The notes: generated by a model not told the origin, from the sequence alone. Positions 26,619 through 51,706 are shown, counted from the first letter of the stretch. The stretch is 64,000 bases of DNA from Candidatus Pacearchaeota archaeon (GCA_017609535.1 JAFCDU010000001.1:4782-68781), one strand, 5' to 3'. Translations and numbers: made by a program.

Positions 26619-27437
26619 TCATTTTGATTTCATTGGGCCTGGTTTTGAAAGTTTAATTTTAATATTAAAATTTTTATTAGGAAATTGTGGAAATTTTAAA
26701 ACTTTAGATTTAATTGGAAAAGGATAGTAAATAGCACACATTGTATTTGAAACCTTATAAACATATTTTCTTCTTTCTTTTGGTGTCCCGTCTAAAATCC
26801 CTGCAAGTGTTGTCCAATTAGTATTCTCATTATCTTTTCCAGCATCATGCCATACTATCATTGAATTTTTATGAATTACTTTAAATACATTTTTCGTATC
26901 TATTTTAACACCAGTATAACTATGGTCACCATCTACAAATATTAAATCGAATTTTTCTTTGAATTTAGTGTAATCAAAAGTATGAGAGTCCTGTTTTATA
27001 TGTTTTACATTTTTCAAATTTTTAGAAAAAAATCTTTGCAACCGAATATACTCTTCTTTCCTACCATATTTTCTTAATTCATCGTCTGATAAGCTAATGG
27101 AAACACATTTATCTGCAACTTGAGAAACATTTGCTATGCTTTCACCCCTCCACGTACCTATTTCTAAATATCTACACTTCTTATACTTTCTTGCCATTTG
27201 TTTTAATAAAGCTAAATCTATAGGCTGGCAGGTTTGAGCTAAATAAGTATAAGGTTCAATTGTTTCCTTAAAATTAGGGGATAAATCTAATAAATCAACT
27301 GTTGGTATTTTTCCATATTTGGCTAAAACATAATCTTTCTTGGATTTCTCCATGGAATTTTCATAACCACCCCTAATAAAAGGTTTTAATTTAAAATTTC
27401 TAATTGCTTGTATAAATTTCTCAACTTTAATTTTCAT
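26619..27437 (-). CDS. Class I SAM-dependent methyltransferase (TylF/Methyltransf_24-like)
   Basis: LEIGTWRGESIANVSQ and DLIFVDGDHSYTGV motifs. Confidence 0.65.
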   Translation of the reverse strand: MKIKVEKFIQAIRNFKLKPFIRGGYENSMEKSKKDYVLAKYGKIPTVDLLDLSPNFKETIEPYTYLAQTCQPIDLALLKQMARKYKKCRYLEIGTWRGESIANVSQVADKCVSISLSDDELRKYGRKEEYIRLQRFFSKNLKNVKHIKQDSHTFDYTKFKEKFDLIFVDGDHSYTGVKIDTKNVFKVIHKNSMIVWHDAGKDNENTNWTTLAGILDGTPKERRKYVYKVSNTMCAIYYPFPIKSKVLKFPQFPNKNFNIKIKLSKPGPMKSK

Positions 27438-27449
27438 GTTTCAATCCTA

Positions 27450-28109
27450 TCAAGTATTTTTATTTTTTCCAATTAAGTATTTAAATGGATAATTAAACAA
27501 CATTCTAATTTTAGCAAAAGCATATAAAACTAGCAAGGCTAATTTAAACTTTAATTTATAAGGCAGAGTTAATCTTTTAAGAAAAATTAAAAAACTAGAC
27601 TTCCCATTTTTTACATAAAATTGTAATCCAGCATAATAATTTGGATTATTTATCCAAGGGTATTCTTCAGTTTTGTATCCACCATTTTCTTTAAAATATG
27701 CTTTCCATCTCTCTAAATTTTTAGGCACTTTCCAACTATAATTTTTAACAACAAAATCTATACTTTTGTGCTTAATTGTTTGTTGGGGATATAATCTACA
27801 ATGAACCCCTCCCAAAACTATTTTAATTTTTGGATTTAGTTTTTTAATCATTCTTGTTTTTTTCAAGGCATTTGGGATGCATAAACTCATTACAGATAGA
27901 CCAACAACAAATGTATTTTTAATTTCTCTTTTTATTAATTCTTTATAGTCTTTTTCTACAACACAATCAATAAAACAAACTTCAAAATTATTTCTTTTCT
28001 TTATCCAGGTAGCAATCGAAAGTAATTCTAAGGGAAAATTTGTTTTTTTATCTGCCCTGATTAAGGAGGCAGGAATTGTATTTATTAACAAGATCTTTTT
28101 CTTTAGCAT
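27450..28109 (-). CDS. Cobalamin (B12)-binding-domain protein lacking a radical-SAM core; possibly a truncated B12-rSAM paralog
   Basis: N-terminal KILLINTIP...LLSIATWIKK...VVGLSVMS...IVLGGVH resembles the B12-binding domain of B12-rSAM enzymes. No CxxxCxxC cluster. Confidence 0.45.
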   Translation of the reverse strand: MLKKKILLINTIPASLIRADKKTNFPLELLSIATWIKKRNNFEVCFIDCVVEKDYKELIKREIKNTFVVGLSVMSLCIPNALKKTRMIKKLNPKIKIVLGGVHCRLYPQQTIKHKSIDFVVKNYSWKVPKNLERWKAYFKENGGYKTEEYPWINNPNYYAGLQFYVKNGKSSFLIFLKRLTLPYKLKFKLALLVLYAFAKIRMLFNYPFKYLIGKNKNT

Positions 28110-28206
28110 ATTGATGTGATCTAATAATGTTTATTTAAATATATTGCCCTTTTTCTTTAATATATTATAAAAAAAATTAAGGCTGTTAAGTATTTAAAAT
28201 TTGATC

Positions 28207-28980
28207 TTAGATTGATTTTAAAATCGCTAATGTATCAGATTTGTTTGTTGTTAAGGAATATCCTTGATCTTTAAGCAAATTTTCACATTCTTTCACATCT
28301 TTTTTATTTAAGTGCATATGTTCATAAAAAATCATCTTTGGTTTCAATTTTGTAAAATCAATTAATTTAATAATTTCATAATCAAAACCTTCTGTATCAA
28401 GGTGTAATAAGTCTATTTTTTTAACCTTATTTCTTTTTATCAATTCTTTAAAAGTTATACATCTAACTTTTTCAACAACAAGATATTTTTCAATGTTTGC
28501 AATTATTCTCTTATTTTTTAAAACTGTTTTTTTATCAAAACTCCCTATTTGTTCATACCAACGTGGCATCCCTTTAAGATTTCTTTTAAGGCGATAAAGA
28601 TTTCTGTATTGGTTCTTATTTGATATAGCAACATTTTCAAATATTAATCTTTTATATATATCTGGAGCCCTTTTTCTATAATTCTGAATAAGTCTTTTAA
28701 ATATATACTTAACGGGTTCTATAAGAATACCATCCCACCTGTATTTTATAATAATTCTATGTATAGGGTCTCCACTAAAACCATCATTAGAACCAATTTG
28801 TATAAAGAAAAAATTATCTATCTTTTTTGAATAATGCTCCACAATTACCCCAAAATCCTTAAAATTATCTGGCAAAGAATCATAAAGTTTTTTTGATAAA
28901 AAAGAAATTAGAATTTTATTTAAGGACAATTTTAAAAGATTTTTAACATCTTTAATTTTTCTTTTAATGTCCATTATCAT
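28207..28980 (-). CDS. FkbM-family methyltransferase
   Basis: IQIGSNDGFSGDP and LLHLDTEGFDYEI motifs typical of FkbM. Confidence 0.65.
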   Translation of the reverse strand: MIMDIKRKIKDVKNLLKLSLNKILISFLSKKLYDSLPDNFKDFGVIVEHYSKKIDNFFFIQIGSNDGFSGDPIHRIIIKYRWDGILIEPVKYIFKRLIQNYRKRAPDIYKRLIFENVAISNKNQYRNLYRLKRNLKGMPRWYEQIGSFDKKTVLKNKRIIANIEKYLVVEKVRCITFKELIKRNKVKKIDLLHLDTEGFDYEIIKLIDFTKLKPKMIFYEHMHLNKKDVKECENLLKDQGYSLTTNKSDTLAILKSI

Positions 28981-29867
28981 TTTAATTTATGCCCCCTCTT
29001 CCTTATTTCAACTTTCAAATTCCTTCCTGAAAATCCTGGAGGGTTTTCATCAACATGAATTATCCTCTTTTTAAATCCAAAGGGCATTGGCTTTGCCTGA
29101 GTCCACGAATAGCTAGGGTCAACAGTATAGACATCTTTTTTATTATCAATAAGATATTTATTTAAAAAAGATTCATCCCACCATTTGGCGATAATTCCAT
29201 TCTTAATGTCTATCTCAGTATCCTTTTCCAACTTTTCAGTTGCTTTCAAAAAATCTTTACTTTTCCCTCCCCAGAAACATGCCTGCCAATAAGTAGACAA
29301 ATCATCCCCTTCTTTTACACTCGCTAAAGATTTAGGATTCTGTTCAAACTGTTCAGGCGAAATCTTATTTACAAAATTAAAATGTTGAACAGCAAAAAGT
29401 GGTTTGTCATGGCAAAAAAACTCCTTCTCAGAAATCACAGAAACAGCATACATGTCTGCATCAATATAAATAATATGAGAATAATTTTTCAATTTTTTCT
29501 TTGCTTTATTGATAAACTTAAATTTTCTAAGATTAACAAAAGGAAATTTTTCATGTTTGATTGGAACAATAATTACATCCTCTTTTCCATTAAAAAATTC
29601 AAAATTCGTTTGGTCTGTGAACACAAAAAAATCTTTTTTTGTTTTAGGTAAAAAAAATTTCTTAAAAGTCGTATAATATCGAGGAAAGAAATGAATATAT
29701 TTGTTTGTGCCAATAAATAAGATAGCGACTTTTGTAGGAAATTGCATTTGCTCTCTATAAGTTACAGAAAGAGCTTTTTTCAAGGCTCTATAATCAATGA
29801 TAGTCCGCCAACAATGGGCAATCCTCCCACCAAATACTTTTCTTATTGCAAGCTTAATTTTTTTCAT
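28977..29867 (-). CDS. Glycosyltransferase family 6-like (alpha-1,3-Gal/GalNAc transferase fold) with DxD motif
   Basis: VAILFIGTNKYIHFF...FFVFTDQ, IIYIDADMYAVS (DxD) and KWWDESFLNKYLIDNKK resemble the GT6 signatures (FAIKKY...YYVFTD, YCVDVDM, WHDESHLNKY). Confidence 0.55.
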   Translation of the reverse strand: MKKIKLAIRKVFGGRIAHCWRTIIDYRALKKALSVTYREQMQFPTKVAILFIGTNKYIHFFPRYYTTFKKFFLPKTKKDFFVFTDQTNFEFFNGKEDVIIVPIKHEKFPFVNLRKFKFINKAKKKLKNYSHIIYIDADMYAVSVISEKEFFCHDKPLFAVQHFNFVNKISPEQFEQNPKSLASVKEGDDLSTYWQACFWGGKSKDFLKATEKLEKDTEIDIKNGIIAKWWDESFLNKYLIDNKKDVYTVDPSYSWTQAKPMPFGFKKRIIHVDENPPGFSGRNLKVEIRKRGHKLK

Positions 29868-29935: not shown

Positions 29936-31432
29936 ATGGGAGATTTAAAAGAAAAAACACTAAAAAATTCATTTTGGAACCTTTTAGCAACATTATCAAA
30001 TCGTCTTGGAGGATTGGTATTTACAATAATTTTAGCAAGATTTCTTTTGCCGGAAACTTTTGGGGTCTATTCAATTATAATCTCCATTGCAATGGTTTTT
30101 TTCACATTTGCCGATTTAGGAGTTAATGGCGCCTTGGTAAGATACGTTTCTTATGCTCTTGCATATGAAAAAAGAAAAATCCCCTCTTATTACAGATACT
30201 TGCTGAAACTAAAACTATGTTTTGCCCTGATTGCATCTACATTACTAATTGCCTTGTCTTATCCAATCGCATTTAATTTATATAAAAATCCGCAATTATT
30301 TCAACCGCTCCTTATATGTGGAATCTATATATTCATCTTATCATTTGAAAATTTTTATTCGCAGATTTTTTATGCAGCTGAAAAAGTAAGATACTTAAGC
30401 ATCAAGGAATTCCTTCATCAGGCAATAAGAATTTCTTTAGCATTCTTTGTTTTCTTTTTTGTTACAGCATCATATCAAATAATCGGAATAATCCTGGCTC
30501 TTATTTTAACTGCAATGCTGATGATTATATTCGGAATTTATTATTCTTACAAATTAATTCCTGAAATGTATAAAAAACCAACAGAGAAAATCAATAAAAA
30601 AAGAATTCGAACTTTCCTTAGCTTTCTAACAATCGCGAGCATTTCAAGCATCTTTTTTTCATATATAGATTCTTTAATGCTCGGACTTTTTACTCCAACC
30701 GAGTTTGTAGGATTTTACAGGGTTTCTTTTTCTTTAGTTTTCGGGGTAATTGGTCTGGCATCATTTGCGAATTTAATTTTTCTTCCGATTTTCACAAAAT
30801 TAAAAAAAGAAAAAACAAATCAAGTCTTGAATCTGGCATTTAAATATATCTCATTAATTTCAATTCCAGCGGTATTTGGCGTGCTCATCCTCGGAAAATA
30901 CTTCATCAAGTTCCTTTATGGACAAAGTTATCTGCCCGCAGCCTTGTCACTCCAATTCCTCTCCTTCCTTATTTTTCCCGCAGTTTCTGTAGGCCTCTTT
31001 CTCTCACTCTTTTCAGCTGAAGAAAAACCTCAAATTTTTGCAAAGCTGATAATTTTAGCAACAATTATCAACATAATCCTTAATTTTATCTTCATAAAAT
31101 CATTCCTTGCCATTTCTCCATTATGGGCGACAGCAGGAGCCGCAATAGCCACTTTAATTAGTTGGACCTTTTATTTCATTTCCGCAGTCATCACTATAAG
31201 AAAAGAGTTTAATCTGAAGATAATTTTCAAGCCACTATTAAAGCCGCTATCTGCCTCATTAATTATGGCGATTGTCATAAGGTTGATTTTAATTAAAGGT
31301 TTAAATCTTATTTCAGGAATAGGAACAATATTTGTCGGATTCTTTGTTTATAGTCTTATCATGATTTTAATAGAGAAAAATATAAAAAAGGAAATTCGGA
31401 AATTGATAAAATACATTCTCAAAAACAAATAA
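29936..31432 (+). CDS. Polysaccharide biosynthesis protein / oligosaccharide flippase (Wzx-like, MOP superfamily)
   Basis: 498 aa, about 12-14 TM helices, typical Wzx topology. Sits in a glycan cluster. Confidence 0.65.
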   Translation: MGDLKEKTLKNSFWNLLATLSNRLGGLVFTIILARFLLPETFGVYSIIISIAMVFFTFADLGVNGALVRYVSYALAYEKRKIPSYYRYLLKLKLCFALIASTLLIALSYPIAFNLYKNPQLFQPLLICGIYIFILSFENFYSQIFYAAEKVRYLSIKEFLHQAIRISLAFFVFFFVTASYQIIGIILALILTAMLMIIFGIYYSYKLIPEMYKKPTEKINKKRIRTFLSFLTIASISSIFFSYIDSLMLGLFTPTEFVGFYRVSFSLVFGVIGLASFANLIFLPIFTKLKKEKTNQVLNLAFKYISLISIPAVFGVLILGKYFIKFLYGQSYLPAALSLQFLSFLIFPAVSVGLFLSLFSAEEKPQIFAKLIILATIINIILNFIFIKSFLAISPLWATAGAAIATLISWTFYFISAVITIRKEFNLKIIFKPLLKPLSASLIMAIVIRLILIKGLNLISGIGTIFVGFFVYSLIMILIEKNIKKEIRKLIKYILKNK

Positions 31433-31464: not shown

Positions 31465-32676
31465 ATGGGAGAAGAACGAACCAACAAAAAACTAAAAATC
31501 CTATTTTTTGGACAATTTACAATTAATCATGATTATGGCGGTCAAGGCCTTGCATACCCAATTATGGAATATCTAGATAAATTTTTTGATATAGAATATT
31601 CCTTTATGGTTTCTGAAAAATATTATCAAGAAAATCTTCCTTATGCAGAAAAAAAGGGCTTCAAATTAGTTCCATTTCCTTATCCAAAAATTTTCATAAA
31701 AAATCAGGATTTGATTAATGCGATAAAAGAAACAGATATTATAATTGATGTAGATGGAATTGAGTATATTGGAAATCTTCCTAAAATAAAAAAATGGTTT
31801 CATTTTTATAGAACTTCTTATATCCAAGATTTAGCAAAAAAATATAAAAAAATTTATTTAAAATCTCCAAAATCTTATGGCCCAATACAAGGCAAGATAT
31901 TCAAGATGCTTGTCAAAAGAAAGTTGAACAAAGTGCCTTTCATATTAGTAAGAGGGAAAGAAAATTTTGAAAATTTAAAAAATCTAAATCTAAAAACCCC
32001 AATTTACAATTGCCCCGATGTATCCTTAATCCTCAAACAAAAACAGCAAGAATGGGCAATAGAATATCTTGAAAAGTTAGGAATTAATCCGAGGAAAGAA
32101 TTAATCGGAATCTCTCCGAGTTATGTAATGAATAATAAAAACGAAGACCATTTAGAACTTTCAAAAAAAATAATTAAATATTTTCAATCAAAAGGCCTAC
32201 AAATTTTGATTATTCCTCATGCAATTAATGATAGTGCAGATATAAGCTCTTGTGACCTTGCTCTTTGCAAATATCTTTACGAAGACTTAGAGGATAAACA
32301 AAATGTCTTTCTAATTACAGACACAGATTTAGAATATAAAGAAATAAGAAGCATAATCGGACGATTATCTTTTTACATTACTGCAAGATATCATGGATTG
32401 GCCTCAGCATTATATATGAAAATCCCCACCGTTATCTGGTCCTGGCATACAAAATATAAAGATATGGCTTCATTATATCTATCAGAACCAAAAATAATTT
32501 CAGAGGAAATGACTCCTGAGCAGGCCATTGAGTTTGTAAAAAGTTCTTATGAAAATCAATCTTGGTTTGATAAAACTAAAATGGAAGAAAAACAAAAGAA
32601 TGTAGAATCAGAAATAAATAAGAACTTGAATTTATTTGTAGAAAAAATAAAGGAAAGAACAAATGAATCTACTTGA
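31465..32676 (+). CDS. Polysaccharide pyruvyl transferase family protein (CsaB/WcaK-like)
   Basis: 403 aa. C-terminal ITARYHGLASALYMKIPTVIWSWHTK resembles the conserved RxHxxI...G(I/V)P block. Confidence 0.5.
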   Translation: MGEERTNKKLKILFFGQFTINHDYGGQGLAYPIMEYLDKFFDIEYSFMVSEKYYQENLPYAEKKGFKLVPFPYPKIFIKNQDLINAIKETDIIIDVDGIEYIGNLPKIKKWFHFYRTSYIQDLAKKYKKIYLKSPKSYGPIQGKIFKMLVKRKLNKVPFILVRGKENFENLKNLNLKTPIYNCPDVSLILKQKQQEWAIEYLEKLGINPRKELIGISPSYVMNNKNEDHLELSKKIIKYFQSKGLQILIIPHAINDSADISSCDLALCKYLYEDLEDKQNVFLITDTDLEYKEIRSIIGRLSFYITARYHGLASALYMKIPTVIWSWHTKYKDMASLYLSEPKIISEEMTPEQAIEFVKSSYENQSWFDKTKMEEKQKNVESEINKNLNLFVEKIKERTNEST

Positions 32677-33277
32677 TTTAATAAAGAAACGAAGAAGTAT
32701 AAGGATATTTACAGGCAAAAAAATCCCAGAGGAAGAATTAAAACAAATACTTGAAGCAGGAGTTTGGGCACCCTCTGGGTGCAATAATCAAGAATTAAGA
32801 TTCCTCGTTTTGGAAGATATAACACCAATACTTGAGTTCAAGCCTTACCTAAAGGGGGTTTCTCATTTCATCATTATCTTTTGCGATACTTCTCTCAAAG
32901 GAAGCAAGATGTATAAAAATAAAAATCAAAGACATTTAAAATTCATCGATACTGGTCTTGCCCTTCAAAACATGGTTATATTTGCAAAAAGTAAGGGGAT
33001 TGATAGTTGTATTTGCAATTTATCAAAATATCACTTCAAATTAAAAGGAAAAATATGGGAGAAAATCTTGCGAAGAATTCTGATAAAACTCAATCTTTAT
33101 AGTTTTTCAAAATCAAATTTTGAATACATAGTTAGAAATAAATTAAAAATTCCAAAACATCTTGAAATAACTGGGGCAGTGGCTCTTGGCTATGGAAAAG
33201 TTTTTCCTGATTTAAGTATAGCAATGCATGATGGTAAAAAAATTAAAAGAAATCCAGTAGATTTTTATAGATTATAA
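32663..33277 (+). CDS. Nitroreductase-family protein
   Basis: RRSIRIF...EELKQILEAGVWAPSGCNNQ N-terminal signature. Confidence 0.6.
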   Translation: MNLLDLIKKRRSIRIFTGKKIPEEELKQILEAGVWAPSGCNNQELRFLVLEDITPILEFKPYLKGVSHFIIIFCDTSLKGSKMYKNKNQRHLKFIDTGLALQNMVIFAKSKGIDSCICNLSKYHFKLKGKIWEKILRRILIKLNLYSFSKSNFEYIVRNKLKIPKHLEITGAVALGYGKVFPDLSIAMHDGKKIKRNPVDFYRL

Positions 33278-33894
33278 TGAAAGATATAAATGCGACAATT
33301 TTAGTTGACCTTACACCAACTGAAGAAGAAATTTTCCAGAATATTCACAAGGATGCGAGATGGGGGATAAAAAAGGCGCTAAAAAACGGCTTGAAAGTAA
33401 AACAAACAGAAGATTGGGAAACTTTTTATCCAATTTATCAAAAAACAATGGCTACAGGAGGCGGTTTTATTCATTCCCTCAAGACTGTTAAAGAAACTTC
33501 CGCAATCCTCTTTTTATGTTATTACAAAAATAAACCAATTGCAGGATTGTCTATCGGATTCAGGGATGACAAATACGATAAAAATCTACCAAGCCTTTCA
33601 AAATTAGCATCATTAAAAGAATATCAAAATCTTCAACCAAATAACCTTCTCGTTTGGGAAGCAATAAAATGGAGTAAAAAAAAGGGCTACAAAAAATTTG
33701 ATATGGGGGGCTGGCAGATAAAGGCACAAGGCCATCTTGTCGGAATAAACAAATTCAAAGAAAGATGGGGAGAACTAACTTACTATTATAAAGATTATCC
33801 AATAAAAATCGCAATTGGAAGAAAGTTAGTTAGAAATTTCCCATTAATAAAAAAAATCTGGGATAAAATAAAAAAGGAAGTTAAAAAGAATTAA
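33277..33894 (+). CDS. GNAT/FemAB-like acyltransferase (Acetyltransf_6-like)
   Basis: 205 aa. WEAIKWSKKKGYKKFDMGG resembles the FemAB/BioF2-like C-terminal motif. Confidence 0.4.
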   Translation: MKDINATILVDLTPTEEEIFQNIHKDARWGIKKALKNGLKVKQTEDWETFYPIYQKTMATGGGFIHSLKTVKETSAILFLCYYKNKPIAGLSIGFRDDKYDKNLPSLSKLASLKEYQNLQPNNLLVWEAIKWSKKKGYKKFDMGGWQIKAQGHLVGINKFKERWGELTYYYKDYPIKIAIGRKLVRNFPLIKKIWDKIKKEVKKN

Positions 33895-34026
33895 AGTGAT
33901 TAACACAAATAATCTTGAAAAGCAGAATATTGAAATTTATAGAAGCTCTAGGGCTATTACCCATTATAATCGTGTCGGTCTAAACCTATTGAAGAAGTAA
34001 TAATCAATAAATATTTTAAGAAAAAT

Positions 34027-34559
34027 ATGAAGATTTTAGACCTCGGGTGCGGAGTTGGAAGAACAACAAAACCATTGTATGACCTAGGATATAATGTGAT
34101 TGGTGTCGAGATAATTAAAGAGATGATTGATCTTGCCAAAAAGAAATATCCTAATATTGATTTTAGGGTGGGTGATGCTTGTAATCTAAAATTTAAAGAT
34201 GCAGAATTTGATATTGTTTTCTTTTCATTTAACGGTATGGATTACATTTTTCCAGAAAAAAAATAGTTGCATTAAAAGAGATTAATCGAGTTCTTAAAAA
34301 AGGAGGTTATTTTATATTCAGTAGCCATAACGCTAAGGGCTTATTTTTTAAGTTCAGACCTTTCTTTTTTCTTAGAAACCTGTTTAAAGGAACTTTGTTT
34401 TCAAGATATAAAATAGATACAAATAAAGACTTTGATGCTCTTTATACTTTTTATGCTTCGCCGAAATATAATATTAAACAAATAGAAAAAGCTACTAACC
34501 TAAGATTTATGGAATTTTTTAAACCTTATCTCACACCTTATTATGTATTTAAAAAATAA
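34027..34559 (+). pseudogene. Class I SAM-dependent methyltransferase interrupted by a -1 frameshift in an A8 homopolymer (34256-34263)
   Basis: Frame 1 reads MKILDLGCGVGRTT...DIVFFSFNGMDYIFPEKK then stops. The +2 frame continues IVALKEINRVLKKGGYFIFSSHN...YYVFKK. Nine A's would restore a single ORF. Confidence 0.65.
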
Positions 34560-34809
34560 ATAGTAAGAAAAATCTTGATTATTTGACACAATAAAAAAAA
34601 CATATGATGACCGCCCAAATCTATCATATCTATGGGAGCAGTTTTAAAATTAAGAAATTTGAAATTGTAAAAATTGCAGAGGGAAGAAGGTTTCCAGTTG
34701 TAAGTAAGATAATAAAGATTTTAGACAAACCCTTCTTTTGGTTGGGCATTGGAGGAAAATTTATGTATGCATTATGTGAGAAGATTTAGTTGTCCTGAAA
34801 ACATTTATA

Positions 34810-39600: not shown

Positions 39601-39672
39601 CTACAATCCATTTACCTTTCGCTTGATATTTCCTATGAATTTAATCATTGCTGTTATTCCTTATAAGTTTTA

Positions 39673-43668: not shown

Positions 43669-44426
43669 AAATACTTCTTACAATAGATTTAGAAGAATTT
43701 GACCTCCCATTGGAATTTGGGATTCAATTGAGAAAATCAGAACAATTCAAAATTTCAAAATTAGGATTAGATAATCTATTGAAAATATTAGATAAATATC
43801 AAATTAAAGCAACCTTTTTCACAACCTCGGCATTTGCATCAAAATATTCAAAACAAATAAAACAGCTTTCTCAAAAACATGAAATTGCCTGCCATGGTTT
43901 ATCCCATTCAGAAACCTGCACTTTAGATTCATTAAAAATCGCAAAAACAAAAATAGAAAAAATAATTAATAAAAAACTTTCAGGTTTTCGTGCTCCAAGA
44001 TACAATTTCAAAAAAATAAAGGAATTAGAACTTCTTAATTTTAAATATGATTCCTCAATCCACCCCACCTGGCTCCCCGGACGATATTGCAATATATTAA
44101 AAAAAAGAACAATGCATAAAATAGGAAATATAATAGAAATCCCCCCTTCAACGCTCCCTTTCTGCCGTCTTCCAATCTATTGGCTCGCATTCAAAAATTT
44201 TCCGCTGATTTATTCAATCGCTTTCACAAAAATAAATTTTCTTTTTTCAGATTACATAATGCTGGTCTTCCATCCTTGGGAATTTACGAACTTAAAAAAA
44301 TTTAAAATACCAAGATATATAAAACATCCAATAATAAAAAAATTAGAAAAATATATCCGATTTTGCAAAAAAAATAATTATCAGTTTACAAGCATCTCAA
44401 ATTATCTCCAAAAATCCATCAAGTGA
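43665..44426 (+). CDS. Polysaccharide deacetylase (NodB-like)
   Basis: LLTIDLEEFD...ATFFTTSAF...ACHGLSHSE. Confidence 0.6.
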   Translation: MKILLTIDLEEFDLPLEFGIQLRKSEQFKISKLGLDNLLKILDKYQIKATFFTTSAFASKYSKQIKQLSQKHEIACHGLSHSETCTLDSLKIAKTKIEKIINKKLSGFRAPRYNFKKIKELELLNFKYDSSIHPTWLPGRYCNILKKRTMHKIGNIIEIPPSTLPFCRLPIYWLAFKNFPLIYSIAFTKINFLFSDYIMLVFHPWEFTNLKKFKIPRYIKHPIIKKLEKYIRFCKKNNYQFTSISNYLQKSIK

Positions 44427-45877
44427 CCAGCAACCGCTTTAACTCCACGGAGATTAAACTTAAAATCATCAAAATTTTTTACATTTTTAATTCTCTGAAA
44501 AACATATCTTGGAGTCAGAAAAATTGTATAAATTTTTCCACAAACTGCTGCAACTTCATCTGCATCCCCATCAACTTTTAATACTGGTTCCCTCATATCG
44601 TATCTTTCATATTCTAATGGATTAAATAAAAACCAACCTTTTTCATTTGCCTCGTTCCATAATTTGGTTCCTGGATAAGGAATTAAAATAGTTGCTTGCA
44701 GAACATCTGCGAATCCAGATTGCATTAATCTTTTAGCAAGTTTAAAAGTCCTTAAAGCATCTTCTTTGCTTTCCCAAGGATAACCAACAATCATAGTTAA
44801 ATGAACAGTCAAACCAGATTTATGAGCCATTTTGCATCCATCAATAATATCTTGAACCTTAATCCCCTTGTTTAATCTATCCAATGTCTCTTGATTAGCA
44901 CTCTCAAGCCCAAACTTAAGCAGTCTAAATCCTGCCTTTTTCATCAAATCATAATCATCCTTCTTCAAAGCACCAAATCTCATATTGCAGGAATATTTTA
45001 TCCTCTTATTATATCCCCTTTTAATCAGCCCATTACATAATTCTCTTAACCAGTTCCCGACAGATAATGTCCCAGAATCATCAAAAATTTCTTTAACATT
45101 ATATTTCTTAATCAGCTCTCCGATTTCATCTAAAACATTTTTCGGGCTTCTATTTCTAAAACAAGGATACATACGGGGCCATGAACAAAATTTGCACTTC
45201 CCCCACCAGCAGTCCCTTCCAGACATAATGTAAAAATAAGGCCTGCCCCACATATTATATTCTCTCTGATAATTTCTCCACTTTGTCAACTCGCGGTCAA
45301 TGTAAGGGGCATCATCAAGTTTATGCTTCAATTCAAACTTTCCAGAATTTTTTATTTTTCCTTTCTCCCTATACCAAACCCCCTTGGGAAGTTTGCCCCC
45401 CTTAATCCAATCAACTAATTCAGAGGATAAAAAATCAAAATCCCCCCCAGTCAACACAAAATCCGCCTTAGAATTTTTCATAGTTTCTTCAGGAAAAGAA
45501 GTAACATGGTCGCCGCAAATTGCAATCTTCATCTCAGGAAATTCTTCCTTTAACCGATTAATTATCCTCCAATGAAGCTTAACAACAGGGGTTTTTGTTT
45601 CAAAAATAAATAACTCTGGATGTTCTTTTTCAAGTAATTTAAAAAACTCATCATTATTAATGCCTTCAGCAACGCAATCAACCCATTTAATTTCATGTCC
45701 TTTCTGCTTCAGCATTGTTGCAGCAGTCCCCATAACAACAGGAAAAATCAAACAAGGATTATTAAACCATTGAAACTGCCGATTCTGACCCAAAGTAGCA
45801 GTTCCTTTTTCAGATTTTGTGGGAGGATATCCAATAAATATTTTCATTTTTGTCTGAAAAACATTGCATAAAGCCAT
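44402..45877 (-). CDS. B12-binding radical SAM enzyme (probable methyltransferase class B)
   Basis: N-terminal B12-binding domain. SGRDCWWGKCKFCS cysteine cluster with CX4CX2C spacing. C-terminal rSAM TIM-barrel-like region. Confidence 0.65.
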   Translation of the reverse strand: MALCNVFQTKMKIFIGYPPTKSEKGTATLGQNRQFQWFNNPCLIFPVVMGTAATMLKQKGHEIKWVDCVAEGINNDEFFKLLEKEHPELFIFETKTPVVKLHWRIINRLKEEFPEMKIAICGDHVTSFPEETMKNSKADFVLTGGDFDFLSSELVDWIKGGKLPKGVWYREKGKIKNSGKFELKHKLDDAPYIDRELTKWRNYQREYNMWGRPYFYIMSGRDCWWGKCKFCSWPRMYPCFRNRSPKNVLDEIGELIKKYNVKEIFDDSGTLSVGNWLRELCNGLIKRGYNKRIKYSCNMRFGALKKDDYDLMKKAGFRLLKFGLESANQETLDRLNKGIKVQDIIDGCKMAHKSGLTVHLTMIVGYPWESKEDALRTFKLAKRLMQSGFADVLQATILIPYPGTKLWNEANEKGWFLFNPLEYERYDMREPVLKVDGDADEVAAVCGKIYTIFLTPRYVFQRIKNVKNFDDFKFNLRGVKAVAGHLMDFWR

Positions 45878-46776
45878 CCAAAGCCATATGCAAAATGAGT
45901 CATAATCCCCATCATAGTAACAAATCCAGTTGTTTTTAAGTTTTTATGTAAACTAGAGAATAACATTACAAAAAAGTAAGCAACAACAAAAGTAAAAAAC
46001 CAAAATCTAATAAACCTGCTAAAAAAAGAAGCAATAAATCCAGCAATAAACCCCACTGAAAAAAGACTGAGTAGCATAAAAAATAATTTATCAGAAGAAA
46101 ATTCTTTCTTAGTAAGCCATCCAATATCTCTTCCATAAATGAACATCTGTTTTAGATGTTTCCAAAAGCTGTTCCTTCTATGATGATAAACAATAACATC
46201 CCCAGCATATAGAATTTTATATCCTTTTTCAGCGACATCAAAGCAAAATTTAGAATCCTCTGCAGTAAGAAAATCAGAATCAAACTTCGGAGAAATCTCC
46301 TTCCTTGAAATATAATTGCAGCTTGGAAGTTCTCTGACAAATTGATTTTTGGCAATCTTATATCTTACAGAAGCTGGACCGCTTACAAAAAAATTTCCTA
46401 AAACATAACCAGAAACATGTTCTGCAAAATTGCCTTCATTAGGCGTAAGATTAGGGCCCCCAACAATTCCGATTTTTTCATTTTTAAAATATTTTAAAGA
46501 ATTCTCCAACCAACTTCTTTTCGGATAAGCATCAGAATCAATAAATGCAAAAAATTCCCCTCTTGCCTTTTTCATTCCCAAATTCCGTTTTACTGACGGC
46601 AGAACCTTGCCTGTTTCAATAACCTTAATACGTTTATCTTTGAATTTTCTATTCCCACTATCAGGAAGGACAAGTAATTCAAAATCATCAAAACTTTGTT
46701 TAATCACCTCTTGAATGCATTTCTCACAATATTTATCAATCTTTTTGCAGGGAACAATCACAGAAAATTTTACCAT
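45844..46776 (-). CDS. Glycosyltransferase family 2 with C-terminal TM helices
   Basis: FSVIVPCKKIDKY and FIDSDAYP (DxD). Confidence 0.75.
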   Translation of the reverse strand: MVKFSVIVPCKKIDKYCEKCIQEVIKQSFDDFELLVLPDSGNRKFKDKRIKVIETGKVLPSVKRNLGMKKARGEFFAFIDSDAYPKRSWLENSLKYFKNEKIGIVGGPNLTPNEGNFAEHVSGYVLGNFFVSGPASVRYKIAKNQFVRELPSCNYISRKEISPKFDSDFLTAEDSKFCFDVAEKGYKILYAGDVIVYHHRRNSFWKHLKQMFIYGRDIGWLTKKEFSSDKLFFMLLSLFSVGFIAGFIASFFSRFIRFWFFTFVVAYFFVMLFSSLHKNLKTTGFVTMMGIMTHFAYGFGWLYAMFFRQK

Positions 46777-47810
46777 ATTAATGAACCTCCAAAGATAAAT
46801 AATGAAAGAAGACAGATTATAATTTGAAATGAAAAAATCAAATAAACAACATCATCTTCATAAACCTTCTTTTTAACTTTTTTAAGGATAAATAAAGATA
46901 AATGAGTCAAGCCATAAATTTTATCATAAGGCATTTCTAAACTGCCATCTGAATTGGGCTTCCCAAAAGAGTATTTTCTCAGCCTCCCACGCAATTTTAA
47001 AATTGTTTCAATTATATAAGGAATAAAAACAAAAACAGCGATTCTCTCAAAATTTCCCAAAATTGCCATACAAGCAATCAATCCTCCAATAGGATATGTA
47101 AGAACATCTCCTGGGAAAACTTTAGCAGGGAATTTATTTTTTAAATAAAATGCAATTAATGAAAATACCATGCATAATCCAATTAAAGCAAGCCACGAAG
47201 AACCAGTTGTATATGCAATAAAAGATAAGAAAGTAAGAATAATAATTCCCTGTCCAGCTTCAAGTCCATTAAATCCTGCCAAGAAGTTATACGTTGTCGT
47301 AGCCCCTGCAACACCTAATGGAATCAAGAACAATGGATAGAAGAGTCCAAAATCAATCAAACCAACAAAAGGAAAATTCATCATATGGACCCCCGCATTT
47401 ATAACAACTAAGGGAATGGATGCAAAAATAGCCAAAAAAATCCTGAACTTTGAAGAAAGCCCAGTAACATGAATTTCCTCTCCAGAAGCTCTTCTAAAAT
47501 CCAATAAATCATCAGTAATTCCAATAATTCCAAGAATTAGAATAACACTCAACAAAGAAAAAATCTGCACATTTACATCTCCCAAATTAGGCATAAGAAA
47601 TGTTCTAAAGGCAACATAAAGCAAAACACCAAGAGTAAAAGCCATAATAACAACCAATCCCCCAGATGAAACAACATTTTTCTTCCTTTCAGGTTTATTC
47701 ATATCTTCCCACAAAAGGCCTAATTGTTTCCCTTTCCTTATCCATTTAGGAAGAAAAACAGCAGTTAATACAAAGCTTATCAATATTGGCAAAATCAAGA
47801 GCCATTTCAT
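46770..47810 (-). CDS. aglH: Dolichyl-phosphate HexNAc-1-phosphate transferase (AglH/Alg7/MraY-WecA family)
   Basis: GITDDLLDFRR (DDxxD) and NFLAGFNGLEAGQG, the archaeal/eukaryotic GPT signature. About 10 TM helices. Confidence 0.75.
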   Translation of the reverse strand: MKWLLILPILISFVLTAVFLPKWIRKGKQLGLLWEDMNKPERKKNVVSSGGLVVIMAFTLGVLLYVAFRTFLMPNLGDVNVQIFSLLSVILILGIIGITDDLLDFRRASGEEIHVTGLSSKFRIFLAIFASIPLVVINAGVHMMNFPFVGLIDFGLFYPLFLIPLGVAGATTTYNFLAGFNGLEAGQGIIILTFLSFIAYTTGSSWLALIGLCMVFSLIAFYLKNKFPAKVFPGDVLTYPIGGLIACMAILGNFERIAVFVFIPYIIETILKLRGRLRKYSFGKPNSDGSLEMPYDKIYGLTHLSLFILKKVKKKVYEDDVVYLIFSFQIIICLLSLFIFGGSLIW

Positions 47811-47842: not shown

Positions 47843-50728
47843 TTATAGTTTCCAATCTATATATTTAGAATAGTCTGTATCCAGATATTCCTCCTTCACC
47901 ACCTCCTCCCCCGTATATTGAATTTCCCAAATTTTAATCGGACCTTGTATGCCGTAATAATCCACAAACTCATGAACAGGAACGCCGTTATTAATTAGCT
48001 CTTTAACAGCAAGAGAATCCTGCGTATGTTTAATAACAAAAGCTGGGAAATTCCCAAATGGGTCATCTAATAGATATATTTGAGCCATAAGCCCCCTTAA
48101 AACTTTTGGAGAAATATAAATTAAAGTTCCATAATCATCAATAGTCAATCCAGTTGAAGATGGCTCAACTTTTTTGATAATTTTAAGTGTAGCTTCCAAA
48201 CCAGAACCAAAGTCATAGAATTCCCCATTATATTCAATGTATCTTATAGGAATCTCATATTGGATACCATTATAAAAATAAACACCTGTTGGCTGTTTAA
48301 ATGAAAGATTATTCATTATCTCAACTTTAAATCCAACAACTCCTGCCCGATTTTGAGGTAGAAAGACATTGGTTCCATTTAATTCATAATTAATATCCTC
48401 ATCAAGATATTGAATTCCATAACCCCCTGAGACTGGAAGTTGATAAATTTTAATAATTCCATCAGAAGTTTCATGAATTTGATTTTTTTTAGAAACAAAA
48501 CTTGAAATTCCGCTGTATCTGTCCATTTCTTTATTAGAACCAATAGAAGAATAAGCCCCATATTTTCCAATATCAGACGAGTCAATTAGTAAGTGGGTGG
48601 CATTATGCGAATATAAGAAATCTAAAGCATCTTTTTGATTATCGCCTGTCAAAACCAACCTGCCCATTAGATAATTCCAATAAACAATAGAATTGCTTCC
48701 ATCTAAAACAGTCGCCCTTTCACCAATACTTTGAACCCAGTAGCCGTAATCCCACCAATGAGCAAAAACAGAATTTTCAGGAGTTTCATCTCTCACCCAG
48801 GCCATTGCCTCCTGCCATTGTTGATTATAATAAGAAGGAATCATCCCCTTGGCAGTTGCAGACGATTCTTTATAAAAAGCGATAAAACAATGTATAGTTG
48901 AAATTAAGACCAAAATCATAAATGTACCAACCACAATCTTCCATGTGGAATCCCTAACCTCTCTAAAATAATCAAAACTTTTTACAGCTAAAAATCCTGC
49001 GAAAATCACAGAAACAGGAGCAAGAATCATAATCAATCTCACAGCACTCCTTGCAGTAATTAAACACAAGATAAATAGAGTAAATAAAAATAAGTAGTTA
49101 TAATTGATTTTTTTAAAACTATAATTCCCCTGTTTTGAGTAATTCCAAAGAATATGAATAGCAACCCCCAAAAACAACAATGCAGAGCCATAATAGAAAA
49201 ATTTACTTAAGAAATTTGTTCCATTGAATACACTATTAGAAGAATATCTGGAAAAAACAAGTCCAATAAAGAATAAGATATATAACCCTGTCAAAATCCA
49301 ACCATCCTTTTTCCTTAAAGGTTTTAACATTTTCTTAAACAAGAATATAGAACCAATAAAGAATAACCAGAATAAAACAGGAATGTTTTTTACATAAGGT
49401 CCAAAACGTTTCCCCCATTGAATAAAATAAGGTTGGTTGTTTTCAGCAACAGTGACCTTCCATCTTCCCGTAACTGGAGTAAATAATGCTTGGTTCAATT
49501 CAGAAATCTTGCTAAAAATAAATCCCGGTCCAAATAAAATAGAAACGAGAATAATCCCAGCAATAATTGCAAAAATAACTGATATGAAATTTTTAGGCAG
49601 TTTGATATTTTCAATTAATCTGTTTTTAGATAATTTTGTTTTCCACAGCATTAAATGGATAATAAATAAAAAGGCAACAAAAAAACTAAATCCAATATAA
49701 AGTGTTTTAATCAATCCAAGCAGACTAAATCTGGCAGAAAAAGCCAAAAGAATTATAGTCGAAGAAATAAACCAACAAAAATAAATAAAAATTTCTTTTT
49801 CTTTAACCTTTCCAAGAGCAAATGCAATCAATGAGGAAACAGAAATTGCAACAAAAACATAAACCATCCCCCCCCAGATTAATCCCATAAGCCCTGTCGC
49901 AATTCCTGCCCCAATTCCAAATAGGAGGGATTTCTTAATATTTTTAATTCTCCATGCCTTGAGAAATAGATAAAAGGCAAGAAACATAAAGAAAAAACCA
50001 GCAGATTCTTTTTCAGGAATCCCCGCAATAGTTCTTGAAATAAAAACAGGAATGACAATCATTAGAAAGGTTGAAATTAATGCAATAATATTCGCCCGTA
50101 ATCTTTTTTTCTTGTCTGAATAAATAAAAATCTCCCTAACAAAAAGAAAGAATACCAAAATTGTAAACCCAAACATAATAACAGGAAATAATGCAGCTGC
50201 ATATTCAACACTGCCGCCAACTAAACTATGTGTCCAGGCAATCATATAAGGAAGCAATCGCGTCTCTCTTGAAGGTTCATATCCTAAAGGCACATATCTA
50301 AATTTATCAACCTCAGGCAGACCTCCTTCTTCAACAATGGTCTTAGCATATCTTGTAAATAACCAAGGATCTAAGTCAGGCCCTAATGTCCAATTATTTT
50401 TTGTAAAGTCCCATAATCCTGGTTTGCCAGTATCAGGCCGGACATGCATAGGCAGACTTCTAATATACACTCCAAGAATAACAGCAATAATAACTAAACA
50501 AACAACCCATATTTTAGGATTTTTAAGAAAATTAACTACTTTTTCTTTTCTTTCTTTTATAATTATTTTTTGGTCTCTTGCCTCTATTTTAGAATCAGGA
50601 GTTTCAACTTTAAAATCCCCAACAGGCCCTTTAATAGAGATTTTATCATCCTGTGTTTTGATATTAATCCCATCTTTTTTAATCCTGACTTCATTAGAAC
50701 CTATGTCAATTTCTTTAAAATCTTCCAT
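47843..50728 (-). CDS. aglB: Oligosaccharyltransferase AglB (STT3 homolog)
   Basis: WWDYGYW motif, 13 TM N-terminal domain and a large C-terminal soluble domain. An about 70-aa hydrophilic N-terminal extension precedes the first TM. Confidence 0.9.
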   Translation of the reverse strand: MEDFKEIDIGSNEVRIKKDGINIKTQDDKISIKGPVGDFKVETPDSKIEARDQKIIIKERKEKVVNFLKNPKIWVVCLVIIAVILGVYIRSLPMHVRPDTGKPGLWDFTKNNWTLGPDLDPWLFTRYAKTIVEEGGLPEVDKFRYVPLGYEPSRETRLLPYMIAWTHSLVGGSVEYAAALFPVIMFGFTILVFFLFVREIFIYSDKKKRLRANIIALISTFLMIVIPVFISRTIAGIPEKESAGFFFMFLAFYLFLKAWRIKNIKKSLLFGIGAGIATGLMGLIWGGMVYVFVAISVSSLIAFALGKVKEKEIFIYFCWFISSTIILLAFSARFSLLGLIKTLYIGFSFFVAFLFIIHLMLWKTKLSKNRLIENIKLPKNFISVIFAIIAGIILVSILFGPGFIFSKISELNQALFTPVTGRWKVTVAENNQPYFIQWGKRFGPYVKNIPVLFWLFFIGSIFLFKKMLKPLRKKDGWILTGLYILFFIGLVFSRYSSNSVFNGTNFLSKFFYYGSALLFLGVAIHILWNYSKQGNYSFKKINYNYLFLFTLFILCLITARSAVRLIMILAPVSVIFAGFLAVKSFDYFREVRDSTWKIVVGTFMILVLISTIHCFIAFYKESSATAKGMIPSYYNQQWQEAMAWVRDETPENSVFAHWWDYGYWVQSIGERATVLDGSNSIVYWNYLMGRLVLTGDNQKDALDFLYSHNATHLLIDSSDIGKYGAYSSIGSNKEMDRYSGISSFVSKKNQIHETSDGIIKIYQLPVSGGYGIQYLDEDINYELNGTNVFLPQNRAGVVGFKVEIMNNLSFKQPTGVYFYNGIQYEIPIRYIEYNGEFYDFGSGLEATLKIIKKVEPSSTGLTIDDYGTLIYISPKVLRGLMAQIYLLDDPFGNFPAFVIKHTQDSLAVKELINNGVPVHEFVDYYGIQGPIKIWEIQYTGEEVVKEEYLDTDYSKYIDWKL

Positions 50729-50767
50729 TTTAATTACTCAATTTTTATACTTAAAAATATATGCATA

Positions 50768-51706
50768 TTAAAATAATGTTGGTGTCACAAATACCTCTAA
50801 TAAAGTAGCAATTATAAGGATAACTATTGCAATTATAATAAGGATTAGCGAGTCTTGTAAAATTTTCCAGAGTCTTTCTCCTCTTAAGTCCTTTCTGATT
50901 ATTGCAACAGAAATAACCCCTCCAGCCAGTGCAGCTATAAAGTAAGATGCAATTTCCAATCCTCCATGAAGCATATATCTAAAGAAACTGAGAAAAAATC
51001 CCGCGATATGAAACCCTCCATAAAAATTATCTTTGAAAAAAATCCCAATAGCAACTGCTATAACAGATGCATTCCAAGCAAGCACAAAAATAGCCCCTGC
51101 CCCAAAAGCTAAAGAAAAAAGTAATGTAAAAATTAACACATAAATATTATTTGCAAAAATATTCATAATCAATTCAGGACGAGTGGCACTTCCAGTAACA
51201 GGAGAAATTCCCTGTCGCTCAATGCAATAATCAAAATTAGCAGGGCTGTTGATTGCACAAAAAACCTTTATTTGAGCATTGAAATTAACAGCAGTATGTG
51301 AAGGGAGAATTATGTACAATAATGACAAGCCGACTAAAATCCCTGCAAATAAGAACATTAATGACCAAAGAGCTTTTGAATGTTCCTTAATTAATTTCCC
51401 TTCATTAGATATTTGAATATCTTTCTCTTCTTCAAGTTTGATAAGATAATACATAAAAGGCAGGGTGCATAATACAATAAAGAGAAGAACAAAAATTCCG
51501 CCGTAATCTCTTAAAATATTATCCTTCCCAAAAACAAAACTAACAACTAACAATGAAACACTCGCATAAAGAAGCCCTATAAAAAACATTTCCCAAGGGC
51601 GCCTTTCAGCTCTTTTTGGATTAATCAGCGATTCTAACATTCTCTTTTTAACATAATTTATTTTTATATATCTGTCGGAATTTATAAAAAATCTTTCCCT
51701 AACCAA
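50768..51706 (-). CDS. Polytopic membrane protein (SpoIIM/DUF95-like?)
   Basis: 312 aa, about 6 TM helices. Confidence 0.35.
   Translation of the reverse strand: MVRERFFINSDRYIKINYVKKRMLESLINPKRAERRPWEMFFIGLLYASVSLLVVSFVFGKDNILRDYGGIFVLLFIVLCTLPFMYYLIKLEEEKDIQISNEGKLIKEHSKALWSLMFLFAGILVGLSLLYIILPSHTAVNFNAQIKVFCAINSPANFDYCIERQGISPVTGSATRPELIMNIFANNIYVLIFTLLFSLAFGAGAIFVLAWNASVIAVAIGIFFKDNFYGGFHIAGFFLSFFRYMLHGGLEIASYFIAALAGGVISVAIIRKDLRGERLWKILQDSLILIIIAIVILIIATLLEVFVTPTLF

Follow-up and report, generated by a model that had tools for sequence, protein, structure and literature searches.

A modular, AglB-anchored surface-glycan locus predicted in a Pacearchaeota genome

Clusters of N-glycosylation genes built around aglB are known from haloarchaea and other groups, and their content differs between close relatives (PMC3871713, PMC11407970). 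In Haloferax volcanii, the N-glycan is completed by AglD, AglR and AglS, which act as dolichyl phosphate (Dol-P)-sugar synthase, flippase and outer-face transferase (PMC3871713). Our full-text literature searches returned no description of agl clusters in Pacearchaeota, nor of the arrangement reported here. We analysed a 64,000-nucleotide stretch of a Candidatus Pacearchaeota archaeon genome (GCA_017609535.1, JAFCDU010000001.1:4782-68781), hereafter the window, in which positions 26619-51706 are, as judged from their gene content, a surface-glycan and N-glycosylation locus of a Pacearchaeota/Nanoarchaeota-type DPANN archaeon. The explanation that best accounts for the whole, to which we assign a probability of about 0.6, is a modular, hypervariable surface-glycan locus that is anchored by AglB and carries a parallel Dol-P-(amino)sugar branch. 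An N-glycosylation core of the locus is very probable.

We listed the open reading frames (ORFs) of the window and scanned their products with Pfam and NCBIfam profiles. A cluster of glycan genes of ~24 kb lies beside AglB, and all 21 ORFs of at least 200 amino acids (aa) between 26619 and 50728 have Pfam domains that had been named in an earlier reading made from the DNA without database searches (the sequence-only reading). Together with the complete motifs of AglB and the GPT motifs of AglH, these profile matches bear out that reading's assignment of a glycan biosynthesis and N-glycosylation island. None of the 16 flanking ORFs tested with Pfam was glycan-related (these encode SecF, SecD, a YdjM-like protein, aIF-2B, RNase H, a YidC/EMC3-like protein, the PolD small subunit, Cdc6, an Lhr helicase, a recombinase, RpoD, a MacB transporter and others), which argues that the clustering of glycan genes is not due to chance. 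More than 1000 AglB homologues exceed 50% identity, and the named ones come from metagenome-assembled genomes (MAGs) of Pacearchaeota, 'Woesearchaeota' or Nanoarchaeota.

The AglB-AglH anchor and the slot behind it

The AglB/STT3 oligosaccharyltransferase (961 aa) is encoded on the minus strand at 47843-50728. Its STT3 identity, for which the sequence-only reading had relied on the motif WWDYGYW, was confirmed by domain search (Pfam STT3, PF02516, 3.2e-12, 47.1 bits against a cut-off of 24.5 bits). WWDYGYW occupies residues 658-664, and in an alignment with 24 homologues (25 sequences) it is invariant, as are DLD (118-120), TVAE (426-429) and DIGK (719-722). We take the roles of these motifs to be those of the acidic first-loop, TIXE-type loop-5 and DK motifs in AglB and PglB structures. 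By its motifs AglB is catalytically complete, and it would transfer glycan to asparagine. The adjoining gene (46770-47810, minus strand) encodes an AglH-type polyprenyl-phosphate N-acetylhexosamine (HexNAc)-1-phosphate transferase of the GPT family (PF00953, 9.9e-29, 100.8 bits against a 27-bit cut-off), with the GPT motifs DDLLD at residue 100 and NFLAGFNGLEAG at 175 (NFLAGFNG is also given for the AglH motif). No equivalog model bearing on specificity for UDP-GlcNAc was passed (MraY, 43 bits against 192). Genes for Alg13 and Alg14, of the chitobiose core, are absent from the window and present in four related loci (L001 and three others).

We gathered 84 related loci (designated by L numbers) and searched their stop-to-stop ORFs with the window proteins, counting upstream neighbours on 42 loci and downstream neighbours, within 10 kb of AglB, on 49. 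The order before AglB is conserved and runs from a ribosomal-protein operon through SecY, a YidC-like protein, in some cases RNase H, and aIF-2B to SpoIIM and AglB; SecY is present upstream in 30 of 42 loci and aIF-2B in 31. A SpoIIM-like protein with seven transmembrane (TM) segments (50768-51706, minus strand; PF01944, 4.8e-14) is encoded directly upstream of AglB in 39 of the 42, and appears from its position to be a conserved AglB neighbour with no known glycan role. On the other side, AglH directly follows AglB in 43 of 49 loci and is the only conserved downstream gene. Glycosyltransferases of family 2 (GT2) were found downstream in 45 of the 49 loci, B12-binding radical-SAM enzymes in 27, a GT-C glycosyltransferase in 25, an LPG_synthase_TM membrane protein (LPG-TM) in 13, a nucleotidyltransferase (NTase) in 12, the NodB-type deacetylase NodB2 in nine, a phosphodiesterase of the alkaline phosphatase (AP) superfamily in seven and a GT4 glycosyltransferase in five. 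The far boundary, a YdjM-like gene and then SecD, is reached within 10 kb in two species, and the variable slot between AglB and YdjM/SecD measures 6.0 kb (L012) and 8.8 kb (L038) in these and 21.5 kb in the window. These comparisons point to AglB-AglH as a fixed anchor that ends a ribosomal-protein/SecY/aIF2B/SpoIIM block, with variable glycan genes filling the slot up to SecDF. A comparison of agl cluster content across genomes had been proposed together with the sequence-only reading, and it found presence/absence variation both among the 49 loci and among strain variants of the window.

The contents of the slot recur as modules. Module A (39.7-46.8 kb) consists of LPG-TM, the GT2 enzyme GT2b with or without NodB2, a pair formed by GT2c and a B12-binding radical-SAM enzyme (rSAM), the NTase and the AP phosphodiesterase. 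LPG-TM occurs with the NTase in 11 of 12 loci (Fisher p 5e-9) and with a close rSAM orthologue in 10 of 12, and the AP phosphodiesterase occurs with the NTase in 7 of 7; NodB2 and GT2b are adjacent in 8-9 related loci, depending on the E-value cut-off, and the GT2c-rSAM pair also recurs in relatives. Module B (35.6-39.2 kb) is the series GT4-GT2a-GT-C; L023 and L064 have the complete triple, and many loci contain the pair GT2a-GT-C. The core of module C, a GT6 glycosyltransferase and a 498-aa Wzx flippase, recurs in two other Pacearchaeota, L089 and L090 (E 1e-79 and 1e-81 for GT6, 1e-147 and 1e-151 for Wzx), and the L090 stretch ends at YdjM-SecD, as it does in the window. Five genes of the distal part (those for Methyltransf_24, FkbM, GT6, pyruvyl transferase and nitroreductase) had no homologue within 10 kb of AglB in the 49 relatives, a span to be read against their distance of more than 18 kb from AglB in the window.

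Two of the related loci held further genes. In L089 (JGI Ga0366824_1001365, 6510-7832 and neighbours), the GT6 orthologue stands beside a phosphonate cassette comprising a phosphoenolpyruvate (PEP) mutase-cytidylyltransferase fusion, a thiamine pyrophosphate-dependent decarboxylase, an iron-type alcohol dehydrogenase and a nucleoside triphosphate transferase, and a B12-binding radical-SAM enzyme is also encoded there. This gene content suggests phosphonate-decorated glycans in the lineage; the window has no PEP mutase. In another AglB island, L003, an ORF for a LAGLIDADG homing endonuclease (17766-18635) lies between a GT2 gene and a B12-binding radical-SAM gene.

Two types of locus can be told apart by the gene directly after AglH, which encodes a short (~410-aa) Wzx in 28 loci and LPG-TM in 12, and LPG-TM and short Wzx were found together in none of the 49 (p 3e-6). 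The types are interleaved on a neighbour-joining tree of AglB (15 parsimony changes over 50 tips), from which we infer repeated cassette exchange. We also considered that LPG-TM simply replaces Wzx, an idea weakened by the long type of Wzx, which is encoded in the distal part of the island and also close to the GT6 orthologue in a further genome of the LPG-TM type; LPG-TM and long Wzx are both present in the window, and probably likewise in the L052 genome. By this pattern the island is a mosaic of independently recurring modules, with whole modules swapped between species. The single, heavily decorated N-glycan envisaged in the sequence-only reading is not established by such a mosaic with its two unrelated flippases.

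Decayed genes and strain variants

Three genes of the island are decayed (27450-28109, 33896-34559 and 39223-39611). Two of them are the methyltransferase pseudogenes already recognised from the sequence, and both proved to be real. The Methyltransf_11 gene at 33896-34559 (plus strand) is disrupted by frameshifts, and its spliced fragments match the full PF08241 profile (3.4e-22). One of the lesions is a 4-nucleotide deletion after 34261. JGI contig Ga0366834_1000729, which is 99.8% but not fully identical to the window, has an extra AGAG at this point that restores a methyltransferase ORF of 178 aa, and AGAG is missing from both the window and an independent assembly, L086 (sample 3300033148). 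Because two assemblies share the frameshift and a third, 99.8% identical, lacks it, we regard it as a segregating allele and not as random assembly noise. The second pseudogene, a class I methyltransferase relic at 39223-39611 (minus strand), has two frameshifts and lacks its 5' third. The spliced relic had no match in Pfam alone, and its recognition required homology to an intact methyltransferase gene (189 aa, Methyltransf_23) that stands beside the phosphodiesterase gene in L076 and that the relic matches in two frames (tblastn with L076:21975-22541, E 7e-23). The third decayed gene, at 27450-28109 (minus strand), is a truncated remnant of a B12-binding radical-SAM gene with a match to the Pfam B12-binding domain only (3e-11); only the first ~100-140 aa of the ~490-aa B12-binding radical-SAM enzymes align with it, and it lacks both a CxxxCxxC motif and the radical-SAM core.

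Strain variants place a breakpoint next to the Methyltransf_11 pseudogene. L088, a 4.5-kb contig from sample 3300033148, matches the window at 99.7% through the genes for Wzx, pyruvyl transferase, nitroreductase and the FemAB-like protein up to 33875, past which it continues into unrelated sequence that includes a NodB remnant as well as a different methyltransferase. L086, the other contig of this sample, ends at 33752, and its last 93 nucleotides (33756-33848) hold 11 mismatches against 0.35% divergence elsewhere. We therefore place a strain-level recombination junction at ~33.8-33.9 kb, at the 3' end of the FemAB-like gene. Within a single population, then, genes are being lost through frameshifts and deletions. 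The three decayed genes, the segregating 4-nucleotide frameshift, the breakpoint and the differing cassette content across 49 related species all strengthen the earlier claim of ongoing turnover.

The space between the methyltransferase pseudogene and the gene for the deacetylase NodB1 (34604-34789) contains an ORF of 61 aa, annotated as a gene by JGI and without a Pfam domain, which may be a further remnant.

Module A and a possible second branch

GT2b, encoded on the plus strand at 42940-43668, is a polyprenyl-phosphate glycosyltransferase catalytic domain of the DPMS/GtrB/ArnC kind (Pfam GT2, 2e-18). Its best solved relative is the Dol-P-Man synthase of P. furiosus (5MLZ, 3.8e-14), which aligns over residues 16-237, the whole catalytic domain, and is followed by GtrB and ArnC; its NCBIfam matches are PpgS, ArnC and AglJ. 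Because its nearest relatives are DPMS, GtrB, ArnC, PpgS and AglJ, GT2b probably charges a polyprenyl monophosphate. The gene for NodB2 (43665-44426, plus strand) overlaps the GT2b stop codon and encodes a NodB/CE4 deacetylase (PF01522, 1e-11; TIGR03006, 3.6e-20) that has the motifs HGLSH and RAPRY and, with zero TM segments and no signal peptide, is predicted to be cytoplasmic. The GT2b-NodB2 operon is divergent from the gene for LPG-TM (41962-42903, minus strand), for which we place the start at 42903 and not at the longer ORF start. LPG-TM is an MprF-flippase-like membrane protein (PF03706, 3.6e-45) that scores above the cut-off of the 'flippase-like' model TIGR00374 (112 bits).

The rSAM gene (44402-45877, minus strand; Pfam B12-binding radical SAM, 8e-21) is overlapped by that of GT2c (45844-46776, minus strand; PF00535, 1.6e-15), which has two C-terminal TM segments. 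The nearest named family of rSAM is HpnJ, matched over nearly its full length (TIGR03471, 9e-53) at 180 bits against a cut-off of 578 bits, and identity to annotated HpnJ is 28% over 384 aa. Its best bacterial homologues lie in glycan clusters with GT2, GalE and methyltransferase genes. From these matches we predict that rSAM acts on a glycan, and sugar C-methylation is more likely than ring contraction because the HpnJ score is below the cut-off, HpnJ itself groups with C-methylases and the bacterial homologues sit in ordinary glycan clusters. At residues 223-231, rSAM has the Cx4Cx2C motif CWWGKCKFC, one residue longer than the canonical Cx3Cx2C. At least 11 close orthologues share the longer spacing, and Cx3Cx2C is present in the other B12-binding radical-SAM enzymes of the same loci and in annotated HpnJ.

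The NTase (400 aa; 40763-41965, minus strand) is an ANT-like nucleotidyltransferase in which an MNT domain is joined to a HEPN-like helical domain. Its Pfam match is weak (Polbeta, 2e-3) and the assignment is confirmed by a structure model (pLDDT 92.9); the family has no Pfam domain of its own. Among its 215 homologues, the named ones are from Pacearchaeota and Nanoarchaeota MAGs, and 149 cluster representatives match at E<=1e-30, which points to an uncharacterised family found to date mainly in DPANN MAGs. The AP phosphodiesterase (39673-40761, minus strand; PF01663, 3.2e-11) is predicted to be cytoplasmic and has a DHG motif at residue 213; its single-sequence AlphaFold model has a pLDDT of 40.5. 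A sequence search of the PDB gave no match for this protein or for GT-C.

GT-C, the last gene product of module B (37584-39173, plus strand; PF13231, 1.4e-13; ~12 TM segments), is a PMT_2/ArnT-like transferase of the type that depends on polyprenyl-phosphate sugars, with a WWDEAEY loop motif and Asp-Glu at residue 54, as in PMT/ArnT-type enzymes. It is preceded on the plus strand by GT2a (36689-37549), a cellulose-synthase-like minimal GT2 (PF00535, 2.6e-33; best solved relative 6YV7, 6e-14), and by GT4 (35562-36692; PF00534, 2.3e-30), for which the nearest named family is Agl16 (NCBIfam, 2.9e-24, 86 bits against a 575-bit cut-off). In L086, the assembly from the sister sample, the GT4 gene lacks 24 nucleotides in frame (35694-35717, NEKEKVKD) compared with the window. 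Before module B lies the gene for NodB1 (34834-35493, plus strand), a NodB/CE4 deacetylase (PF01522, 1.2e-14) with the motifs HGYQH and RAPQF and one C-terminal TM segment, whose start we place at 34834 and not at the longer ORF start.

In module C, GT6 (28977-29867, minus strand) is a soluble GT6-family enzyme with zero TM segments in a TM scan and a DAD (DxD) motif at residue 136. It matches PF03414 (2e-18, 66.7 bits against a 25-bit cut-off) and falls under the 250-bit cut-off of NCBIfam Gltr_6 (155 bits). The Wzx/MOP flippase of the long, 498-aa type follows (29936-31432, plus strand; Pfam Polysacc_synt, 1.6e-28), and on the same strand come a CsaB-like polysaccharide pyruvyl transferase (31465-32676; PF04230, 8.5e-18; TIGR03609, 1.4e-16), a nitroreductase-family flavoprotein (32663-33277; PF00881, 3.2e-22) and a half-size FemAB/GNAT-like acyltransferase (33277-33894; Pfam FemAB, 4e-11). 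The pyruvyl transferase and nitroreductase genes overlap by 14 nucleotides and remain together in strain variant L088, which suggests that their products work as a pair. An FkbM-family methyltransferase (28207-28980, minus strand; PF05050, 1.3e-17; TIGR01444 above the cut-off) and a class I SAM methyltransferase (26619-27437, minus strand; PF13578, 4.6e-15) complete the distal cassette. The latter had been called TylF-like, which holds at the level of the clan only, the actual family being Methyltransf_24 (5e-15).

On the reading that we prefer, AglH would load HexNAc-1-phosphate onto dolichyl phosphate at the cytoplasmic face, and GT4, GT2c, GT2a and GT6 (soluble or peripheral) would lengthen the chain. 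The pyruvyl transferase, the FkbM and Methyltransf_24 methyltransferases, rSAM and the FemAB-like acyltransferase would tailor it, Wzx would flip the lipid-linked oligosaccharide, and AglB would move the oligosaccharide to asparagine residues of secreted proteins. Family composition and gene adjacency suggest a parallel lipid-monophosphate branch, in which GT2b would make Dol-P-hexose or Dol-P-HexNAc, the co-transcribed cytoplasmic NodB2 would take off the N-acetyl group, LPG-TM would flip the product and GT-C would transfer the (amino) sugar at the outer face to the N-glycan, in the manner of AglS, to protein or to lipid. The NTase and the AP phosphodiesterase, always found with this branch, would probably attach a nucleotide or phosphodiester handle to the sugar and process it afterwards; this step is the weakest of the scheme and is speculative. 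We advance the second branch tentatively, at somewhat less than even odds. By analogy, module A may make a lipid-linked amino sugar instead of simply decorating the N-glycan, because its family composition is the same as that of the Arn-type, hexSDF-type and hpnJ-hpnI-hpnL pathways. The second route, such as O-mannosylation, that the sequence-only reading had drawn from GT-C is not established; the AglD/AglR/AglS precedent (PMC3871713) and an Arn-like Dol-P-amino-sugar branch would fit equally well.

Several points weigh against our preferred reading. Every substrate assignment in it is made by family analogy, and no pathway-specific NCBIfam equivalog cut-off was reached, be it that of HpnJ (180 of 578 bits), of GlcN_PG_flip (26.5 of 320) or of Agl16 (86 of 575). 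Pfam scans of the window found neither an ArnE/F-type flippase nor ArnA/ArnB sugar-nucleotide enzymes. Over the 10 kb next to AglB, GT-C and the LPG-TM module show a negative association (1 of 12), which may reflect no more than the length of the module. NodB2 is missing from about half of the loci of the LPG-TM type, so that deacetylation would be optional. As to the comparison itself, relatives were viewed only to 10 kb from AglB, the Fisher tests treat loci as independent and ignore phylogenetic relatedness, and the AglB tree is a single-gene neighbour-joining tree.

A single pathway, in which all of the genes build and decorate one complex N-glycan, with LPG-TM as a second or alternative flippase for the lipid-linked oligosaccharide and GT-C adding the last sugar outside like AglS, would explain why everything is contiguous with AglB-AglH and why LPG-TM, directly after AglH, occupies the position that short Wzx has in other loci, where the two never co-occur; it also has a precedent in Haloferax AglD/AglR/AglS, where the glycan is finished on the outer face (PMC3871713). 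We consider it unlikely, given that the window and probably the L052 genome hold LPG-TM together with long Wzx, so that LPG-TM is no simple substitute for Wzx, that the modules recur independently of one another, and that GT2b, as an enzyme of the Dol-P-sugar-synthase type, implies a lipid-monophosphate intermediate of its own. It is very improbable that the distal part of the island (26.6-37 kb) is instead a recent import from bacteria with no relation to the glycosylation system native to the lineage. Overall GC content is ~0.32 and dips to 0.24-0.29 at 26-29 kb and to 0.26 at 35-37 kb, compared with flanking values of 0.33-0.36, GT6 has bacterial homologues such as an Acidobacteriota protein at 53% identity, and the five distal genes named above have no homologue near AglB in the relatives. 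However, low GC is common in glycan loci, the relatives were followed over a shorter distance than separates these genes from AglB, orthologues of GT6 and long Wzx occur in other Pacearchaeota, once in the same SecD-bounded slot, and GT4-GT2a-GT-C recurs in relatives. Nor do any integrase, tRNA or flanking repeats bound the segment or the island, in which the repeats found were short AT-rich chance matches; the nearest tRNA is a tRNA-Arg at 22909, past SecF.

The remaining alternative takes module A apart from protein glycosylation and has it remodel scavenged membrane lipids into an amino-glycolipid or amino-cyclitol lipid of the outer leaflet, comparable to the aminoglycolipids of hexSDF/gpgSDF or to the bacteriohopanetetrol cyclitol ether of HpnI/K/J/L and, by analogy, to calditol. 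It builds on the match between rSAM and HpnJ, on the contiguity in Paraburkholderia of the hpnJ, hpnI and LPG-synthase genes, which represent the same three families as GT2c-rSAM and LPG-TM, on synthase-deacetylase-flippase operons that produce glucosamine lipids (PMC10128005, PMC12713373) and on the ring-contraction chemistry reviewed for HpnJ and Cds (PMC13459092). Yet rSAM lies far under the HpnJ cut-off, and similarity networks group HpnJ with the C-methylases Fom3 and MoeK5 (PMC9204698), so that a best match to HpnJ is no sign of ring contraction. The closer bacterial homologues of rSAM are found in ordinary polysaccharide clusters beside methyltransferases, the deacetylase is of the NodB type and not the YdjC type of HpnK, and the module is always attached to AglB-AglH. 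We rejected orthology with the hpn genes because the matches of GT2c to HpnI (E 0.013) and of LPG-TM to HpnL (E 0.003) are insignificant, which leaves the hpn link as an analogy only. We regard this account as quite unlikely. Highly doubtful, too, is a bolder form in which module A would be a new archaeal pathway from a lipid-linked HexNAc to a sugar with a free amine, or to an amino-cyclitol head group formed by ring contraction, on dolichol or a host lipid. In the amino-cyclitol version, to which we give equally poor odds, the product would resemble bacteriohopanetetrol cyclitol ether or calditol and be exposed at the surface of a DPANN cell that scavenges lipids, with a transient nucleotide handle as in Fom1/Fom3/FomD.

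Outside the island, the window has a serine recombinase gene at 11232-11990 (Resolvase and Recombinase domains, 5e-44) near a helix-turn-helix protein and two ORFs without Pfam match; this region (8.9-14 kb) may be an integrated element unrelated to the island. Genes for the PolD small subunit and Cdc6/Orc1 (760-3626) are followed by ~1.5 kb with no ORF of at least 150 aa, up to a tRNA-Ser, and this gap (3626-5146) is a candidate replication-origin region.

Relation to known glycosylation systems

In the ArnC/ArnD/ArnEF/ArnT pathway and the mycobacterial PpgS/Rv3779 pathway, a GT2 polyprenyl-phosphate-sugar synthase is followed by a NodB-family deacylase, a flippase and a GT-C enzyme that adds the amino sugar outside. 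The island resembles the Arn pathway, at family level only, in combining a GT2 polyprenyl-phosphate transferase with a NodB-family deacylase and a GT-C, and GT2b matches ArnC and PpgS; it differs in having an LPG_synthase_TM flippase instead of the small ArnE/F type, and in the absence of ArnA/ArnB-type genes from the window. Operons of C. difficile (hexSDF) and P. aeruginosa (gpgSDF) have been shown by experiment to make hexosamine lipids through a HexNAc intermediate (PMC10128005, PMC12713373). They share with module A an adjacent glycosyltransferase, polysaccharide deacetylase and MprF-like flippase, a match in composition only, whereas the synthase here is a DPMS-like GT2 and not of the MGDG-synthase or GT4 type, and the module lies inside an AglB locus. 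Scores stay below the equivalog cut-offs: GlcN_PG_flip reached 26.5 bits of 320, and GlcN_PG_synth matched only GT4, at 28.6 bits of 480. The hpnJ-hpnI-hpnL(-hpnK) genes likewise set a B12-binding radical-SAM enzyme, a membrane GT2 and an LPG_synthase_TM protein side by side, with a deacetylase also in the pathway (PMC13459092). In contrast, real sequence similarity is confined to rSAM (LPG-TM scores 28 bits with the HpnL model against a cut-off of 196), the deacetylase is NodB and not YdjC, the cysteine motif is Cx4Cx2C and not Cx3Cx2C, and the host is an archaeon without hopanoid substrate; Pfam scans of the window ORFs found no hopanoid genes.

With aglB clusters of the Haloferax type, the locus shares the grouping of the oligosaccharyltransferase gene with transferases, a Wzx-type flippase and sugar tailoring, as well as variable content. 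Unlike the Haloferax aglJ-aglM cluster, it belongs to a DPANN host, and initiation would be by the GPT enzyme AglH, implying HexNAc linked to dolichyl pyrophosphate, where Haloferax uses the GT2 enzyme AglJ. To our knowledge, no B12-binding radical-SAM enzyme, GT6, LPG-synthase-TM flippase, ANT-like NTase or AP phosphodiesterase is part of a characterised Agl pathway, and the LPG-TM/B12-rSAM/NTase module is a six-gene set with no counterpart in the characterised archaeal Agl pathways. What goes beyond the known kind of cluster is the fixed slot between SecDF and AglB in DPANN archaea, with its swapping of modules, module A itself and the prevalence of B12-binding radical-SAM enzymes.

DPANN archaea live attached to host cells, and their surface glycans are therefore likely to act in recognising the host and in evading viruses; the locus offers a genomic marker of surface diversity in this uncultured group. 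A parallel in behaviour is the bacterial O-antigen or capsule slot, which likewise has conserved flanks, low-GC, recombining modular cassettes, Wzx, frequent pseudogenes and replacement at strain level. The bacterial loci differ in having a Wzy polymerase, a chain-length regulator and a ligase, which are lacking here, and as AglB is the transfer enzyme the product is probably a protein-linked oligosaccharide and not a polymer. With its fixed anchor, swappable modules and decay within a population, this DPANN N-glycosylation locus behaves like a bacterial O-antigen locus.

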